Counted from the first letter of the stretch, positions 8,610-40,352 are shown. The stretch: 64,000 bases of DNA from Verrucomicrobiota bacterium (GCA_049523555.1 JBEKMU010000010.1:1395-65394); one strand, 5' to 3'. Numbers and translations: made by a program. The notes: generated from the sequence alone by a model not told the origin.

Positions 8610-9449
8610 ATGAACATTCTCGACACCATTGTTGAGCAAAAGAAACGTGAGGTCGCGCAACTGCCTGCGCGACTCATCGCCGCCGGCGATTTGCGCGATG
8701 CGCTGCTCGAACGCGGCGAGAGGCGCGATTTTCTCGCGGCCTTGTGCCAGTCGCGTCATGGCGACATCGCGCTGATCGCCGAGGTCAAAAAGGCGTCGCC
8801 ATCGGCGGGCGTGATTTGCCAGGACTTTGACCCGGTCCGCATCGCCAAAGAATACGAAGCGGCGGGTGCAAGTTGCCTGTCGGTTTTAACTGACGAAAAA
8901 TTCTTTCAAGGTTCGCTCGATTATCTCCAGCAAATCCGCGCAGCGGTGAAGCTGCCGTTGTTGCGGAAGGACTTCATCATTGATGAGCGGCAAATCCTCG
9001 AGGCCATCGAATGGGGCGCGGACGCCATCCTGCTCATCGTCGCCATTTTGAGCGACGACCAATTGAAAAAGTTCCATTCGCTGGCGACCGAAGCCGGCTT
9101 GGCTGCATTGGTTGAGGTTCACGACGAAGCGGAATTGGAACGCGCGCTGAAAATTGGCGCGAATTTGATCGGCGTCAACAACCGCGATTTAAGAACTTTC
9201 AAGATGGATTTGGCGACGACAGAAAAACTGGCGGCAGAATTAAACCGTAGGACAGGCGTCTCGCCTGTCTCTAAAATTAAAAATGGAGACAGGCAGGATG
9301 TCTGTCCCACGCTTGTTGCCGAAAGCGGCATTCACACGCGCGCGGACGTGGAGCGGTTGAAGAAATGCGGCGCTAACGCAATTTTGGTCGGCGAATCATT
9401 GATGCGCGGTGGTGATATTCAATCCAAAATCCGCGATTTGATCGGGTGA
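8610..9449 (+). CDS. trpC: indole-3-glycerol phosphate synthase carrying an in-frame palindromic-element insertion
   Basis: KKASPS, NNRDL and ESGI blocks. About 20 extra residues (RRTGVSPVSKIKNGDRQDVCPT) are encoded by the repeat at 9247..9310. Confidence 0.9.
   Translation: MNILDTIVEQKKREVAQLPARLIAAGDLRDALLERGERRDFLAALCQSRHGDIALIAEVKKASPSAGVICQDFDPVRIAKEYEAAGASCLSVLTDEKFFQGSLDYLQQIRAAVKLPLLRKDFIIDERQILEAIEWGADAILLIVAILSDDQLKKFHSLATEAGLAALVEVHDEAELERALKIGANLIGVNNRDLRTFKMDLATTEKLAAELNRRTGVSPVSKIKNGDRQDVCPTLVAESGIHTRADVERLKKCGANAILVGESLMRGGDIQSKIRDLIG
9247..9310. repeat. REPIN-like element, family A (GTAGGACAGGCG...), inside trpC
   Basis: 64 bp with two inverted hairpin units and GTAG / C(C)AC termini. 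About 85% identical (reverse orientation) to 17772..17835. Confidence 0.8.
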
Positions 9450-9453
9450 ATTG

Positions 9454-9531
9454 GTAGGAGACGAGGTAACGAGGCTCACTTGATTTCGGATTTCGGATTT
9501 GAAGTGTGAGCCTCCTTACGTCGGCTCCTAC
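9454..9531. repeat. REPIN-like element, family B (GTAGGAGCCGACGTAAGGAGGCTCAC inverted pair)
   Basis: Two ~26-bp arms in inverted orientation (about 23/26 complementary) around a TTTCGGA-repeat loop. Lies between convergent trpC and pdxA. Confidence 0.75.
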
Positions 9532-15244: not shown

Positions 15245-16264
15245 TTACTGTGGCAATTGTGAGATTTGAAAACCTAGCTCACGAGCGCGCTCGATGAATT
15301 TACCGATATTGCTCACAGCCCACTCATTACAGACTACTACTTTCTTTTCGTCGCCGGTTAAAAGAGTGTCTTCTTCATCCGGAAAGTATCTCCGATAACC
15401 TGTTCGTTTGATAATCTCCTGTCCCCTTTCTTGCGGGGCGAAGACACCCCACGAGCCTTGCAATGAATCCGGAAATGCCACTTTCAATTCTTCGAAAGTT
15501 GTTTTGGGTTTATCTTGAAGATATACCCTGACAACTGCGAGAACCAGTCGGCTCTTCGCAAGTGCTTCGCCACCGAAATTATATTTTGTGTAATCCTTCT
15601 GGCGGGCCTCTCTGCGTTGTTCAGCTTGGGCACGGAGCTTAACTTGGTAATCTCCCGCATCGGGTAGTGGTATAATTTGTTGAACATCCAACAAGATTTG
15701 ACCGCCACTTCGGTATGGTTTTAAACGAACACACCGAATATCCAAGTCGCGCTCATTTAGCCAGAGAACGCTAGTTGTGAGTTCTTGAGAAAATTCGGCG
15801 GCAGCGAGAACAATTCGGACATCGCTTGCAAATTGATCAGCGTGCGGTTCTTGCCATCCTAAAAAAACAAGCAATTCCTGTCTCGCATTCTTGGCCTGTT
15901 GCGTCTTGCGAAGAAAATCTTCGTAAATCTGGACAGCTTTGTCGAATGTGAGAGTAGAAAGCATGGCTGCATAACGAACTGCTTGGAGCTCCATGTAACT
16001 TCCTGAATCATTTCGTTTCAATTCGACAACCACTAGGTTTGCGTGGTCGTCAACGCCGAGCAAATCCACTCGCGATTTGGTGTCTTCCCAATCAGAAAAC
16101 TCTTCTGCAATGACAAGTGTTCTTGGAGAGATGATGTCAATTTTTTCTCGAAGCATTCGCTGCAAGTCTCGGCGCTCAAGAATCCCTTCCACCTCAAAAC
16201 TGGTGGATTGGATTGCGGCCAAGGATTTATTTTCGATTTTGTAGATTGCCATTTTATCCTCCAA
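15245..16264 (-). CDS. NucS/DUF91-like PD-(D/E)xK nuclease-fold protein (single-gene AT-rich island)
   Basis: Motif EEFS...RVDLLGVDDHANLVVVELKR...LQAVRYAAML. Markedly AT-rich. The start at 16264 overlaps the argJ stop by 11 nt; an alternative ATG is at 16252. Confidence 0.7.
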   Translation of the reverse strand: MEDKMAIYKIENKSLAAIQSTSFEVEGILERRDLQRMLREKIDIISPRTLVIAEEFSDWEDTKSRVDLLGVDDHANLVVVELKRNDSGSYMELQAVRYAAMLSTLTFDKAVQIYEDFLRKTQQAKNARQELLVFLGWQEPHADQFASDVRIVLAAAEFSQELTTSVLWLNERDLDIRCVRLKPYRSGGQILLDVQQIIPLPDAGDYQVKLRAQAEQRREARQKDYTKYNFGGEALAKSRLVLAVVRVYLQDKPKTTFEELKVAFPDSLQGSWGVFAPQERGQEIIKRTGYRRYFPDEEDTLLTGDEKKVVVCNEWAVSNIGKFIERARELGFQISQLPQ

Positions 16265-17723
16265 GCGTTGTTGGATCCGCTACGTCGCCCTTGTTGAAAT
16301 CCACGTATGCTTCCGTCAAATCGGCGGCGTAAATCACCGCGCCGGCCCGGCCGAGGTTCAGGTTGATGTGCAAATCAAATTCCTTCGGCGCCGCGGCGGT
16401 ACAGAGCTGCTTGAATGTCGCCTTCGTCGGCTGCCCATGTTTCAAGCTCCAGAGAATTTTTCTGCGGCCGTCTCGTCGCGCCGAAGCGTCAGACGCGAAG
16501 GCGGAGCTGTAACCGATGTCCACCTTCTCCTCGACGATTTTTGCCGCGGAATAACCGAGCGCGTCAATGATGCGGCCCCAGTTCGGGTCGCCGCCATGCC
16601 AGCTTGTCTTCACCAGCGGACTGTTGGCCACCGCCCGAGCCGCGGCATCGGCGTCCTGAACCGTCTTCGCGCCGTTTACCCGCACCGTCACCACGCGATG
16701 AACGCCCTCACCGTCGCGCACAATCATCTTCGCCAGCTCCAGACAGACGTGGTTGAGAGCTGACTGAAACGTCGTCAAATCGCGTAGCCGCGCTTGTGAA
16801 AGCGCGGATTTCCGCGAACTTACGTTCGCGGCTACAAGCGAAGGGTTTCCTGCGAGTCCATTCGCCAGCACCAGCACCGTGTCGTTGGTGCTCATGTCGC
16901 CATCCACGGTGATGCGATTGAAGCTCTGCGCGACGGCTTCCTGCAAAGCGGCCTGCAAAGTTTTCGCTTCAATCGCCGCATCGGTGGTAATGAAACAAAG
17001 CATCGTCGCGTGCAGCGCGGCGGGCCGCGCGCCGGTGGCGGACATCATCGGCTGAATCATGCCCGCGCCCTTGCAAATGCCGCCGATACGGACGGCTTTG
17101 CCGCCCAGCTTGAATTCAACCGCGATTTGTTTGGGCCGTGTGTCGCTCGTCATGATGGCTTCGGCAGCCTGGTCCGCGTGACTTGATGAATTCCCTAGCA
17201 GTTTTGCCGCCTCCAAAATTCCACGTTTGACGTTTCCCATCGGCATGGTGACGCCAATGCGTCCAGTCGAGCCGACCAAAACACGTTCGGCGGGCAATTC
17301 GTAGCTGCGTTCGTTAGAACGCGGCTGATCTTTTCGCGAAGAAGATGGCCGCGAACTCATCCCGCACAACGGGACAGCTACGGTGTGGGCGGTGACGCGC
17401 GTCATTTCCATGGCATCCTTAAAACCCTGTTTTCCCGTGCAGGCATTGGCGTTGCCGGAATTGACGACGATGGCCTGTGCAGCTCCCCTTTTCACGCGTT
17501 CGACGCATACCCTCACCGGTGCGGCACAAACCTGATTGGTCGTAAACATGCCGGCAACTGACGCCGGGACCTTGGACACAATCAGCGCGAGATCGCGTTT
17601 TTGTCCCTTGTTAGAGCCTTTGCCCGTGCCGAGGCGTTTGATGTCGCAAAATACGCCGCCGGCGAGGAAGCCTTTGGGTGCGACGATGGAACCTGAAATT
17701 TCTTTGAACGGATTTTTGCTCAT
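16254..17723 (-). CDS. argJ: bifunctional ornithine acetyltransferase / N-acetylglutamate synthase, unusually long (489 aa) because of internal insertions
   Basis: KGF..GG, NSGNANACTG, the autoprocessing site ATML and DGEG blocks are present. Canonical ArgJ is ~400-410 aa. At least two insertions coincide with palindromic repeats. Confidence 0.9.
   Translation of the reverse strand: MSKNPFKEISGSIVAPKGFLAGGVFCDIKRLGTGKGSNKGQKRDLALIVSKVPASVAGMFTTNQVCAAPVRVCVERVKRGAAQAIVVNSGNANACTGKQGFKDAMEMTRVTAHTVAVPLCGMSSRPSSSRKDQPRSNERSYELPAERVLVGSTGRIGVTMPMGNVKRGILEAAKLLGNSSSHADQAAEAIMTSDTRPKQIAVEFKLGGKAVRIGGICKGAGMIQPMMSATGARPAALHATMLCFITTDAAIEAKTLQAALQEAVAQSFNRITVDGDMSTNDTVLVLANGLAGNPSLVAANVSSRKSALSQARLRDLTTFQSALNHVCLELAKMIVRDGEGVHRVVTVRVNGAKTVQDADAAARAVANSPLVKTSWHGGDPNWGRIIDALGYSAAKIVEEKVDIGYSSAFASDASARRDGRRKILWSLKHGQPTKATFKQLCTAAAPKEFDLHINLNLGRAGAVIYAADLTEAYVDFNKGDVADPTTLGG
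16784..16835. repeat. REPIN-like element, family C (GTAGCCGCG...CGCGGCTAC), inside argJ
   Basis: GTAGCCGCGCTTGTGAAAGCGCGG + ATTT + CCGCGAACTTACGTTCGCGGCTAC, i.e. two 8-bp-stem hairpins in inverted orientation. It encodes ~VAANVSSRKSALSQARL. Confidence 0.75.
17301..17381. repeat. 81-bp GTAGCTGCG...CAGCTAC palindromic element inside argJ
   Basis: GTAGCTGCGTTCGTTAGAACGCGG... ...GGGACAGCTAC contains several internal hairpins. It is exactly 27 codons and matches a ~27-aa insertion before the conserved STG.IG block. Confidence 0.65.
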
Positions 17724-17771: not shown

Positions 17772-17835
17772 GTAGGACAGGCGTCCCGCCTGTCTCCATT
17801 TTTTAAGTCAGAGACAGGCGCGACGCCTGTCCTAC
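17772..17835. repeat. REPIN-like element, family A, intergenic copy
   Basis: GTAGGACAGGCGTCCCGCCTGTCTCC...GAGACAGGCGCGACGCCTGTCCTAC. It supplies the last codon and the TAG stop (17832-17834) of the methyltransferase gene. Confidence 0.8.
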
Positions 17836-18641
17836 GTTTTTATCGCATCAATTTCCAGCCGCACCATGCGGACGTGGACGCGCCCGGCCGCGTCCGGTGG
17901 ATGTTGGGCGAGGTATCGGTCTGCAACAGCAGCGATGAAATCCTCGCGCAAATTTTCCGGCACGCGCTGCGTGTAAGGCAGCCAAGTCGTGCGCAACCAT
18001 GCCGTAAAGCTTTTGCCGTCGCCGTAGATGGCATCCTTCGGCGACAGGCGCACACCCAAAGATTTGAACCCAAATCGCGGCAGCCATTTTTCATAACTGT
18101 CCGGGCTGTGAAAGAAATACGGCTTTTCCATCCTTCGGAAAAATTCGCACCAGCGTTTGAGCCGCATTTCCGGGCGCAACGCAACGAATATATCCTGCGC
18201 GTTGCCCTTGCCGCCGCACGAAATCACCAACTGTCCGCCGGAACGCAGACACGCCGCCGCCCGGCGCAAAAACGCCTCATGATCGTCCACCCAATGCATG
18301 GTGGCGTTAGAAAAAACGAGGTCGAATTGCCGCTCAACCCGGATTTGGCGCGCGTCCATCACCCGGAATTTCAAATTGGCAATTTTGCCTGAGGGAAAAG
18401 CGGCGCGGGCGAATCTGATCATTTGCGGCGAGGCATCAATGCCGACCACGAAACCGTGCGGCACGGCGTGGGCGATTTCGGCGCTGATCTTGCCGTCGCC
18501 ACAGCCGACATCGAGGACGTGCTCATCGCCCCGCAGGTTGAGCCTGGCGATGAGTTCGCGCGCCCAGGCTTGCTGCACGACGGAATTCGCGGCGTAATCG
18601 GCAGCATTCCATTTGGCGGGTTGTGAAGCAATTCGAGGCAT
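17832..18641 (-). CDS. class I SAM-dependent methyltransferase (trans-aconitate methyltransferase-like)
   Basis: VLDVGCGDGKIS motif I and DLVFSNATMHWV. Start trimmed to the ATG at 18641. Confidence 0.8.
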   Translation of the reverse strand: MPRIASQPAKWNAADYAANSVVQQAWARELIARLNLRGDEHVLDVGCGDGKISAEIAHAVPHGFVVGIDASPQMIRFARAAFPSGKIANLKFRVMDARQIRVERQFDLVFSNATMHWVDDHEAFLRRAAACLRSGGQLVISCGGKGNAQDIFVALRPEMRLKRWCEFFRRMEKPYFFHSPDSYEKWLPRFGFKSLGVRLSPKDAIYGDGKSFTAWLRTTWLPYTQRVPENLREDFIAAVADRYLAQHPPDAAGRVHVRMVRLEIDAIKT

Positions 18642-18708
18642 TTTTTGGGCAGGGACGAGCCGCTGCTCGTCCTGAATTGGGGCCGCGCGGCAGCACGGCC
18701 CTACCACG

Positions 18709-38697: not shown

Positions 38698-40017
38698 TTA
38701 TTGCCTCACGGGCGCGGGTTTGTCCGCCTTCAAGGCCGGCAGCCAATCGTAGTAGGCGCGATGAAAGAAAGGTTCCTGCGAACCATGTACGTTTTGATGG
38801 CCGGAGTTCGCAAGAATGATGACTTCCTTTGGCGAAGTGATTCTGTTTGCGTCGGCCAGAATGCTCGACGGCGGCGCGAGTTGTTCATCGTGCAATCCAA
38901 GAGCGATGAGCACGGGGCATTTGATGCGGCGCGCAAAGTTCGCCGGGTCGTAATACCGGCTGGTTTCATGCACTTTTTTCGGGTCCTTGCCGTCGGTGTT
39001 GAAATACCAGTTCGGAAAGCCCGTCGCGCGCCCGGCTTCGGGGGCCAGCATGTCGGAAGCCGCCGGTACGAGTGCCAGCGCGGCAGTGATGTCTTCGGGA
39101 CACAAGCCCGCGAGCATCAACGTCTGCTGTCCGCCCTGGCTTTGACCCATCACGACGAATGTTTTGCCATCCCAATCAGGACGTGACTTCAGATATTTCA
39201 TGGCCTGGACGCAGGACAGATACATCCGCAAATAATAGCTCTGGTCGCGGTCGTCGTTGCCGATGTTCCAATAATTTTTGAGCGGCCCGTCATACTCCTC
39301 CTTGTAAAACGATTCCGGTTGGTCAATCGGGATATCGTGGGCTTCGATGTTCAGCGCCAGCCAGCCGTCCTTGGCACGGTCGGTCACCCAGCTTTTCTGC
39401 AATCCGTAAACACCGGCCCATTGCGGGATGAGCAAGGCCGGGAATTTTTGGCCTTTTTCAGGACGCGCAATCTGTCCTTCGATGTGCGTGCCACCGATGT
39501 TGTCCAAGGTGATTTTCCAATACGCCACACCCGGCTTTCCACTGTCCACTTTTTCGAGCTTCGGATGGGCGGGGACTTTCTTCAACATCTTCAGCTTGGC
39601 CTTCCAGAACGCATCGAAATCGGCTGGCGGCGGGGCGGCAGGCAGGATTTTATCCGGTGCAGCGACGGCACCACCCCAGACACGATTGGAGTTATTCTCC
39701 GGTTGCCACTGCACTTCGACCAGCATCGTGTTCGGTTTGTCGAACTTGGATTCCAGCGTGGCGGCATCGTTGCTGAAGGTCAGCTCACCCTGTCCCACCT
39801 CCGTAAAGCCGCCGCTCTTGAGGATATAATGCGCGGCGGGCGCGTTCGTGCCGCCCCTCCATTCGACCGTCCAATGAACGGTTTCGCCAATCTGATAAAT
39901 GCCGTTTGATTTGTCCGGCGCGACCACCATCGGTTGCGCGCAACAAAAATTCGCAACCGCCAAAAAAACCGACGCAATAACAAAATTGGAAGCGTGTTTG
40001 TATTGCATAAGGCGCAC
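38698..40017 (-). CDS. acetylxylan esterase (AXE1/CE7-like) with signal peptide
   Basis: GQSQGG nucleophile elbow, with later Asp (GLHDE) and His (SGHQ). N-terminal signal peptide. Confidence 0.75.
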   Translation of the reverse strand: MRLMQYKHASNFVIASVFLAVANFCCAQPMVVAPDKSNGIYQIGETVHWTVEWRGGTNAPAAHYILKSGGFTEVGQGELTFSNDAATLESKFDKPNTMLVEVQWQPENNSNRVWGGAVAAPDKILPAAPPPADFDAFWKAKLKMLKKVPAHPKLEKVDSGKPGVAYWKITLDNIGGTHIEGQIARPEKGQKFPALLIPQWAGVYGLQKSWVTDRAKDGWLALNIEAHDIPIDQPESFYKEEYDGPLKNYWNIGNDDRDQSYYLRMYLSCVQAMKYLKSRPDWDGKTFVVMGQSQGGQQTLMLAGLCPEDITAALALVPAASDMLAPEAGRATGFPNWYFNTDGKDPKKVHETSRYYDPANFARRIKCPVLIALGLHDEQLAPPSSILADANRITSPKEVIILANSGHQNVHGSQEPFFHRAYYDWLPALKADKPAPVRQ

Positions 40018-40025
40018 GGGTTGTA

Positions 40026-40352
40026 CTAGGCAGTGATAAAAATTTCGCTGTCCGTGATTTGCAATTCAACGCCCGCGGCCTTCGCGGCTTCTTGAAGGGC
40101 GGCATTCAGCATTACCACCGGATCTCTGCTGACGTCGAGCCGGCGCATCAAACCTTCGCCTTTTTTGGTGCCGACGGTGAGCGTCAATTTCAGGCCTTTG
40201 CGTTTGCAACTGACGCGCGTGCCGTCGGGCAGTTTGGTGTTCATCGGTTTGATGAAGGCATCAGTGTAATGCACGCCGATGCCCGATTTATCGGCGGAAC
40301 CAGGCGGAAGTTTTTCCTTGGCCGCCGCATTGATGTCACAAAGCTTTGTCAT
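40026..40352 (-). CDS. hypothetical 108-aa protein, co-oriented with the corrinoid reactivation genes
   Basis: ORF lies 25 nt after the upstream gene and 8 nt before the esterase gene. GGGGAA lies upstream of the ATG. Confidence 0.5.
   Translation of the reverse strand: MTKLCDINAAAKEKLPPGSADKSGIGVHYTDAFIKPMNTKLPDGTRVSCKRKGLKLTLTVGTKKGEGLMRRLDVSRDPVVMLNAALQEAAKAAGVELQITDSEIFITA

Follow-up and report, generated by a model that had tools for sequence, protein, structure and literature searches.

The trpC locus

The window analysed here is a stretch of 64,000 nucleotides from a Verrucomicrobiota bacterium (GCA_049523555.1, JBEKMU010000010.1:1395-65394), and its subject is a short palindromic repeat that lies in frame inside trpC, the gene for indole-3-glycerol-phosphate synthase. 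The source genome (designated G000, in which the window is contig C10) amounts to 3.13 Mb in 192 contigs and is 92% complete. Its closest relative, G022, is a separate species-level assembly of 30 contigs. The trpC gene (8610-9449, plus strand) is an intact open reading frame (ORF) encoding 279 residues, and is the sole copy in G000. The repeat occupies positions 9247-9310, exactly where a first-pass annotation had described an element of two inverted GTAG hairpins. It is 64 bp long, runs from GTAG to CCAC (GTAGGACAGGCGTCTCGCCTGTCTCTAAAATTAAAAATGGAGACAGGCAGGATGTCTGTCCCAC), and has the form of an inverted doublet of repetitive extragenic palindromes (REPs), the arrangement known as a REPIN (REP doublet forming hairpins). 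The family to which it belongs is referred to below as family A.

The left REP unit (9247-9271, plus orientation) consists of GTAG, an 8-bp stem (GACAGGCG/CGCCTGTC) around a TCT loop, and then TC; it matches the family pattern with 0 mismatches in 23 nt. An A/T-rich spacer of 14 nt follows (9272-9285, TAAAATTAAAAATG), which codes for part of KIKN and is identical in G022, while among the family copies the spacers differ. The right unit (9286-9310, minus orientation, GAGACAGGCAGGATGTCTGTCCCAC) is inverted and slightly degraded. It departs from the consensus in two places: one stem pair is a G.T wobble, and CCAC stands where CTAC is expected. At both positions G022 has the undegraded state. Folded as RNA, the whole element makes a single long hairpin with an energy of -43.1 kcal/mol (z = -9.2). 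The 23-nt half unit has three matches in the window at ≤3 mismatches, compared with none in 100 shuffles.

As had been proposed, the element is read through without a stop or frameshift. Codons 213-234 (nt 9246-9311) encode RRTGVSPVSKIKNGDRQDVCPT, so that the 64-bp doublet plus one flanking base on each side makes up 22 in-frame codons. The GTAG tag yields no stop because the phase of insertion (CGT AGG) avoids TAG. Tryptic peptides predicted from the sequence of the insert include TGVSPVSK and QDVCPTLVAESGIHTR. The protein is otherwise a complete member of its family: the Pfam IGPS profile matches residues 4-277 over positions 1-254 of 254 (E 2.3e-89), with 3tsm as the top match among solved structures (E 1e-62).

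A second family-A doublet is found at 17772-17835, in the extragenic space between argJ (16254-17723, minus strand) and a gene for an S-adenosylmethionine-dependent methyltransferase (17832-18707, minus strand). Its opposite orientation, noted in the first-pass annotation, is borne out by 55/64 identities (86%) with the trpC copy in reverse orientation against 49/64 in the same orientation. The CTA(C) end of this element is the source of the TAG stop codon of the methyltransferase gene. Another GTAG family is represented by an inverted doublet (GTAGGAGACGAGG...CCTCCTTACGTCGGCTCCTAC) at 9454-9531, directly 3' of the trpC stop codon and between the convergent trpC and pdxA genes.

Orthologues and assembly support

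TrpC was aligned with the orthologues of 26 relatives, 20 of the same genus and 6 of the same order, and the loop concerned is found in four states. Only G000 and G022 have the family-A insert (RRTGVSPVSKIKNGDRQDACPT), at the same position and with 90% amino acid identity. Five congeners (G011, G017, G005, G008 and G018; loci L003, L004, L007, L008 and L012) have a different insert, MEDRRLRMAKTSPPSSILNLPSSP, and three more (G019, G009 and G006) have a half-length form of the latter. The remaining state, a short linker, is seen in 16 of the 26 proteins and measures 8-14 residues in genomes of the same genus. At the DNA level MEDRRLRMAKTSPPSSILNLPSSP corresponds to an unrelated hairpin with (GGAAGAT)n heptamer arms, placed in the same loop, between helix α6 and strand β7. 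Hairpins of this second family are dispersed in G000 as well, with at least 11 present, mostly extragenic (e.g. C5:13749-13828 and C55:15982-16060). Solved structures of the enzyme have 18 residues fewer at the position of the insert, and the G000 loop is likewise 18 residues longer than in insert-free congeners. The earlier placement of the insert between the conserved NNRDL and ESGI blocks can be made more precise: it follows α6 and directly precedes β7.

The tree of TrpC sequences is poorly resolved (no starred branch), and places the insert-free G015 beside G000. It is too weak to place G015 or to count the origins, one or several, of the heptamer-hairpin insert. The TrpC of G020 (L024) has a separate insertion of 16 residues within QRSTAVPAAALAGGTPALHS, at about alignment residues 50-66 and before strand β1, which looks like a translated REP-type hairpin of yet another kind (..GGTPALH).

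The metagenomic runs that contain the window stretch are from peat. In one of them (X1), Logan contigs cover 9041-9266 and 9271-9500 with 0 differences, supporting both junctions; the contig break falls in the middle of the element because repeats break unitig assembly. Because X1 is possibly the source sample itself, the agreement backs the assembly without being evidence from another sample. Independent support for the insert comes from G022, since that is a separate species-level assembly. The 64-bp segment of trpC is an insertion of a mobile-family repeat and not an artefact of assembly.

Family A in G000 and its relatives

The half unit of family A is GTAG-GACAGGCN-loop-NGCCTGTC, with a stem of 8 bp. 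There are 72 such units in G000 at ≤3 mismatches, and when units with ≤4 mismatches are paired, 37 inverted doublets of 55-131 bp are obtained, about 33-35 of them clean. Spacers in G000 and G022 are roughly 14-85 nt long. The innermost stem pair co-varies across copies (GGCG/CGCC, GGCT/AGCC, GGCA/TGCC), the pattern that selection on a hairpin would produce. Copy numbers are patchy, with 0 to 91 half units in the 31 genomes of the genus and none in 7 of them. A reversed-pattern control gave 0 matches in all 31.

A doublet was counted as intragenic if a reading frame runs through the element uninterrupted and extends for at least 75 codons to either side. In G000 this applies to 22 of the 37 doublets, or 23 with trpC, which has 45 downstream codons; the genome-wide count that the first-pass annotation called for thus gives 22-23 copies in frame inside long housekeeping ORFs. 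The corresponding figure for G022 is 33 of 52, or 35 with trpC and a case at a contig end. The intragenic share in the two genomes is therefore 59-67%, while 54.5% of randomly drawn 70-bp windows of G000 meet the same definition. Since doublets are intragenic about as often as random windows, there is no depletion of the family in coding sequence. It appears to be filtered for frame compatibility rather than excluded from genes. Only two phases are used, so that the left end reads either VGQASSLS... or RRTGVPPVS..., and the right end reads ...GDRQDACPT, ...ETGGTPVLR or ...RQAGSLSY.

The host proteins in G000, as recognized by Pfam, are DnaE (two inserts), ThiC, NuoG, a class-III aminotransferase, GlnE, Nnr/YjeF, ArgS, DsbD, CstA, AlaS, HypF, a zinc-dependent alcohol dehydrogenase (ADH), PurL, Mfd, RecJ, LigA, an MqnC/CofH-like radical-SAM enzyme and a glycoside hydrolase (GH); two hosts have no Pfam match. 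A further 119 loci come from other metagenome-assembled genomes (MAGs), mostly of Verrucomicrobiota. Among these, 32 of 54 short doublets (≤100 nt) lie in long ORFs, compared with 3 of the 32 that are longer. Exact copies of the REP come mainly from bog, peat and lake MAGs with the label Verrucomicrobiia or Limisphaerales. Exact 20-base matches are also seen in MAGs of other phyla, assigned to Pirellulales (L105), Gemmataceae (L063 and L085), Acidobacteriota (L062 and L103) and Oscillatoria (L107), which could represent horizontal spread, convergence or mis-binning. The Pirellulales contig contains a tandem array of 7 family-A units spaced at about 168 bp.

Predicted structure of TrpC and state of the gene

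An AlphaFold2 model of G000 TrpC, built on the 26-sequence alignment, has a mean predicted local distance difference test score (pLDDT) of 87.6 and a predicted template modelling score (pTM) of 0.88. Helix α6 spans residues 201-215 and strand β7 residues 234-238, and the coil between them (216-233) includes a part of the insert, residues 220-229, with pLDDT below 50. In (βα)8 barrels the catalytic residues belong to the C-terminal strand ends and the βα loops, while the αβ loops are on the opposite face. The structural check suggested in the first-pass annotation thus places the insert in a low-confidence coil on the face opposite the active site, and according to the model it is a disordered surface loop on the non-catalytic side of the barrel. 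Like the alignment of orthologues and the genome-wide count, also proposed in that annotation, this outcome favours its interpretation.

Outside the insert, the ratio of nonsynonymous to synonymous substitution rates (dN/dS) of trpC between G000 and G022 is 0.099, at a dS of 0.51. There is no other full-length match to trpC in G000, and trpA is present and intact. Given the low dN/dS, the single copy of trpC and the intact trpA, the gene is, as judged from sequence, in use and under purifying selection.

Age and turnover of the inserts

G000 and G022 have about ten orthologous inserts in common, namely those of one DnaE site, DsbD, CstA, ADH, PurL, Mfd, RecJ, an unannotated ORF and TrpC. For the G000 inserts in ThiC, NuoG, AlaS, ArgS, LigA and HypF, no counterpart was found in the G022 set, which consists of element-bearing loci only; these inserts may be lineage-specific, or their counterparts may be too diverged for the pattern. 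Differences are also seen within shared hosts. The PurL gene of G022 (L222:2356-3158) has a second family-A doublet, and its GlnE gene (L192) has a doublet at another site than the one in G000. In these two genes an element has therefore been gained or lost after the two species separated.

Transposases associated with the repeats

REPINs are non-autonomous mobile DNA, moved in trans on single-stranded DNA by REP-associated tyrosine transposases (RAYTs), which are enzymes of the HUH/Y1 type. A RAYT-like sequence is located between two family-A doublets in G022 (C13, about 39347-40151, minus strand; L218:2401-3205). It matches the NCBIfam model REP_Tyr_transpos with E 1.8e-19 and 70 bits, against a cut-off of 80 bits, and has both the HUH motif (HVH) and the YxxxNP tyrosine motif (YVQENP). 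A Tyr-to-Phe change in WQxESFD was considered as a loss of the catalytic tyrosine and rejected, as Phe is usual there in other RAYTs. The conserved tyrosine of the RAYTs compared lies in YxxxNP, and this we take to be the catalytic residue, corresponding to Tyr115 of E. coli TnpA_REP. The whole REP-RAYT-REP unit is in frame within a DinG-like helicase of 962 residues, between its DEAD (48-110) and Helicase_C_2 (794-956) domains. The orthologue in G000 (C96:7739-9904) has 722 residues, and at the site of the RAYT there is a filler of 34 residues from a cgcaaca-type repeat. Two RAYT-free loci with similar insert peptides (L079 and L121) were tried as further DinG-like helicases but are not that gene.

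The RAYT-like genes of G000 on contigs C48, C39 and C18 carry other REPs (other GTAG REPs on C18 and C48), and the one on C14 is accompanied by a different hairpin. Two of them, at C18:28211-28832 and C48:5204-6376, are free-standing RAYT or IS200-like genes with GTAG REPs of their own (GTAGCCGTGGGA... and GTAGCGGCAACCATCC...), so that several REP-RAYT systems coexist in G000. Family A has probably been mobilized by a RAYT as well, as suggested indirectly by the inserts that differ between G000 and G022 and by the patchy copy numbers.

The helicase of G022 is one of many such cases, since homologues of RAYTs are embedded in open frames of 950-1480 residues in many congeners. In the DinG-like helicases of three species (G022, G053 and G017) the RAYT lies between the DEAD and Helicase_C_2 domains. 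In ClpB (G020 and G044; L262/L263) it separates the two AAA+ modules, and in an HsdR-type restriction subunit (G062; L267) the RAYT, in turn interrupted by another REP, separates ResIII from EcoEI_R_C. In the DnaE of G063 (L261) a RAYT follows VYFAPA and precedes GIRFGLAAIKG, where G000 has one of its REPINs. Two sites are used in AlaS: four genomes (L294, L297, L298 and L299) have the RAYT after GKKYGSTLP, which is the site of the G000 AlaS REPIN, and two (L295 and L296) have it at a second, more C-terminal site. In PriA the site is orthologous in eight genomes (L288-L293, L300 and L301), from at least 8 species, and immediately precedes the Walker A motif. The domain embedded there has the motifs MPDHVHLL and YIWNNP and is joined to its host by REP-derived linkers. 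Its median pairwise dN/dS is 0.078, compared with 0.10 for the remainder of PriA (dS about 0.3-2), and the low ratio means that the embedded RAYT is constrained as a protein in the frame of its host. No description of in-frame RAYTs within host genes was found in the literature searched. Quentin et al. 2018 (PMC6006769) dropped 'unexpectedly long proteins' among RAYTs as fusions or errors.

Interpretation

The most probable explanation, and one in which we have high confidence, is that a REPIN inserted in frame into the α6-β7 loop of trpC and is translated as a disordered loop of a functional TrpC. The element would be an inverted doublet of GTAG-tagged REP hairpins that entered the loop in the common ancestor of G000 and G022. 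It could have survived there for two reasons: in this phase it brings no stop and changes the length by whole codons, and the loop is predicted to lie on the barrel face opposite the active site. It would then be transcribed and translated with the gene as a surface loop, leaving the enzyme functional. The insert is probably near-neutral, and probably translated. There would be nothing special about trpC as a host, as roughly two thirds of the copies in this lineage appear to sit in housekeeping genes in the same manner.

Several points weigh against this account. The loop has gained 18 codons over the shortest linkers and not 22, which means that some of the original linker has been exchanged or lost; the pre-insertion allele is not reconstructable. 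The definition of intragenic copies is blind to genes broken by an element. When the 14 G000 doublets outside ORFs are removed in silico, neighbouring genes on the same strand become fused, but this result is confounded because REP ends supply stop codons, and allows no conclusion on broken genes. None of the seven Y1_Tnp matches in G000 is flanked by family-A REPs, so the family may be immobile in that genome, or its transposase may be in the unassembled ~8%. No RNA run containing the window stretch was found, and translation of the loop is presumed. The one metatranscriptome with a related transcript (X12, a poor run) has only the trpC of a relative, 54 nt shorter between the conserved blocks; this is no evidence of excision, because it is from a different organism.

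The remaining point concerns conservation. Across nine orthologous inserts, the arms are 91.8% identical between G000 and G022, compared with 81.5% for the spacers and 85.2% for the flanking coding sequence. In four arms the stem type has been switched through changes on both sides. The trpC element itself differs at only 4 of 64 bases (94% identity), while the other third codon positions of trpC are 75% identical, and dS is 0.21 in the element against 0.51 in the rest of the gene. A view of the element as a pure passenger may therefore be incomplete. These data are the main argument for the idea that the element has been co-opted, with the hairpin selected for a role in trpC mRNA or DNA (slowing of ribosomes, mRNA half-life, or binding of a REP-recognizing protein) and the peptide as a by-product. 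Three of the four changes in the trpC element keep the pairing as G.U on the sense strand, and the very stable RNA hairpin also fits such a role. However, gene conversion or template switching among some 40-50 copies would yield the same conservation and the same swaps of arms. Other orthologous arms, such as those in DnaE and PurL, show one-sided decay, most congeners have no insert at all in the TrpC loop, and the numbers involved are small. Co-option is on balance unlikely, although it keeps some weight. The conservation of the arms reflects either selection on the hairpin or conversion among copies, two readings that are not separable here.

Another possibility is that the doublet is a scar. 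A complete REP-RAYT-REP unit would once have been in frame in the loop, and the RAYT would have been deleted by recombination between the flanking doublets. Precedents exist, as two of the family-A sites of G000 (in AlaS and DnaE) hold complete in-frame REP-RAYT-REP units with other REP types in congeners, and in the DinG-like helicase of G022 the family-A RAYT, with a doublet on either side, is in frame too. Against this, none of the 26 TrpC orthologues examined has a RAYT at the loop, and the REPs around the RAYTs of AlaS and DnaE are of families other than A. Repeated colonization of permissive loops explains the use of the same sites equally well, and the TrpC loop is a case in point, given the unrelated heptamer-arm hairpin that it holds in five congeners. 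A scar is thus quite improbable.

Removal of the element before TrpC is mature, whether by RNA excision, translational bypass or protein splicing, is very doubtful. There is no direct evidence for it, and it can be said in its favour only that the -43 kcal/mol hairpin could in principle join the flanks. All intragenic copies found keep the frame of the host open (23 in G000 and 34-35 in G022), while only about half of the six frames of each copy are free of stops. This counts against removal, because an element removed before translation would not need an open frame. The insert has 22 residues, starts with Arg and is followed by Leu, and lacks intein blocks and nucleophiles; 64 nt would not accommodate a group I or II intron or a ribozyme core. 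In the runs examined, comprising DNA contigs and one poor RNA run, no joined form without the insert was seen. The notion of an old, fast-evolving linker or an assembly chimera with no mobile element, to which the variable length of the loop (8-14 residues in insert-free congeners) might seem to point, has next to no probability left and is refuted by membership of the 64 bases in a dispersed family (including the left unit with its 23 matching nt), by the lack of such a segment in 16 of 26 orthologues, and by junctions that recur with a second assembler and an insert that recurs in a second species.

Taking insertion of a REPIN into the translated loop as the preferred reading, the trpC case shows a selfish hairpin apparently absorbed as a surface loop of an enzyme, and for the same gene there are also empty sites in congeners, an orthologous insert in a sister species, a predicted structure and estimates of selection. 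The wider pattern bears on the origin of new protein loops and linkers. For the annotation of Verrucomicrobiota it means that such loops are not errors, and that protein lengths are inflated by them. More tentatively, the REP-RAYT system of this genus as a whole could have shifted to an intragenic life, with RAYTs as translated domains of host proteins without a stop codon of their own, and frame-compatible REPINs that spread no less freely in coding sequence than in spacers, their arms still interacting with the rest of the REP population. This is a possibility that we hold to be less probable than not. If it were true, a transposase of single-stranded DNA residing in replication-fork proteins could reach its substrate there. 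If REPINs and RAYTs live in essential genes, the assumption that they are confined to intergenic space fails in this lineage, and population models built on it do not apply there.

Comparison with known systems

The closest parallel is provided by Di Nocera, De Gregorio and Rocco 2013 (BMC Genomics 14:522, PMC3733652), who defined the GTAG and CGTC superfamilies of REPs. GTAG REPs have a 6-9-bp stem-loop after the tag and form inverted dimers with spacers of 20-100 bp. Intragenic REPs were catalogued in the same study as a minority, most REPs being intergenic, and the GTAG cases were most numerous in Opitutus terrae, a member of the Verrucomicrobia. Dimers inside ORFs code for 20-30 residues, known hosts are DNA ligase, helicases, DnaE-type polymerases and tRNA synthetases, and GTAG ends give TAG stops to adjacent genes. 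Family A resembles these elements in the tag, the inverted dimers, the number of residues, the housekeeping hosts, the supply of TAG stops and the phylum. Even the translation of O. terrae GTAG-19, GTGVPPV, is close to the RTGVPPV of family A. It differs in that 59-67% of its doublets are intragenic, as many as with random placement, and in its occurrence in Limisphaerales-type peat MAGs, which belong to a different order from O. terrae, with the stem GACAGGCN. Furthermore, trpC does not seem to be among the hosts listed, as there is no match to 'indole' in the supplementary table of PMC3733652.

The extragenic location that defines a REP does not hold for family A, and was already relaxed in PMC3733652. 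The first-pass annotation had regarded the Rickettsia palindromic elements (RPEs; Ogata et al. 2000 and later, as summarized in PMC3733652) as the classical exception, and the trpC insert as RPE-like. RPEs are indeed palindromes known from inside ORFs, but they are not the only ones, in view of the intragenic GTAG and CGTC REPs catalogued in that paper. According to its summary they are selfish palindromes, in frame in many unrelated and often essential genes, with a large intragenic share, and are thought to be translated as surface loops, all of which is shared with family A. RPE-4 and RPE-6 are CGTC-tagged REPs with no dedicated transposase, and RPE-1 is a longer palindromic insertion (PMC3733652). 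Family A, in contrast, is GTAG-tagged, is flanking a RAYT in G022, belongs to another phylum and has no sequence relationship with them. The likeness thus holds for in-frame insertion into unrelated ORFs, but the element is a RAYT-associated REP or REPIN and not of the Rickettsia family.

The REPIN-RAYT systems of Pseudomonas and E. coli (TnpA_REP), described by Bertels and Rainey 2011 (PMC3116915) and Nunvar et al. 2010 (PMC2817692), are similar, as far as the account of them in PMC3733652 extends, in the inverted doublet that makes one long hairpin, the single-copy RAYT flanked by its own REPs (for family A seen in G022 but not in G000), the lineage-specific family sizes and the long persistence. 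In the same account the classical REPINs are extragenic and the RAYT gene is free-standing, while family A is mostly intragenic and its RAYT in G022 is inside a helicase gene. Inteins and self-splicing introns differ from the trpC insert in size and junction residues. As far as its sequence goes, the trpC insert fits the description by Di Nocera et al. in every respect tested, and is RPE-like in the way it works without being an RPE. The kind of event is therefore already documented; what is new is trpC as the host, the intragenic proportion and the use of one loop by two unrelated families of hairpins, and, beyond the trpC insert, the RAYTs that are in frame within host genes.

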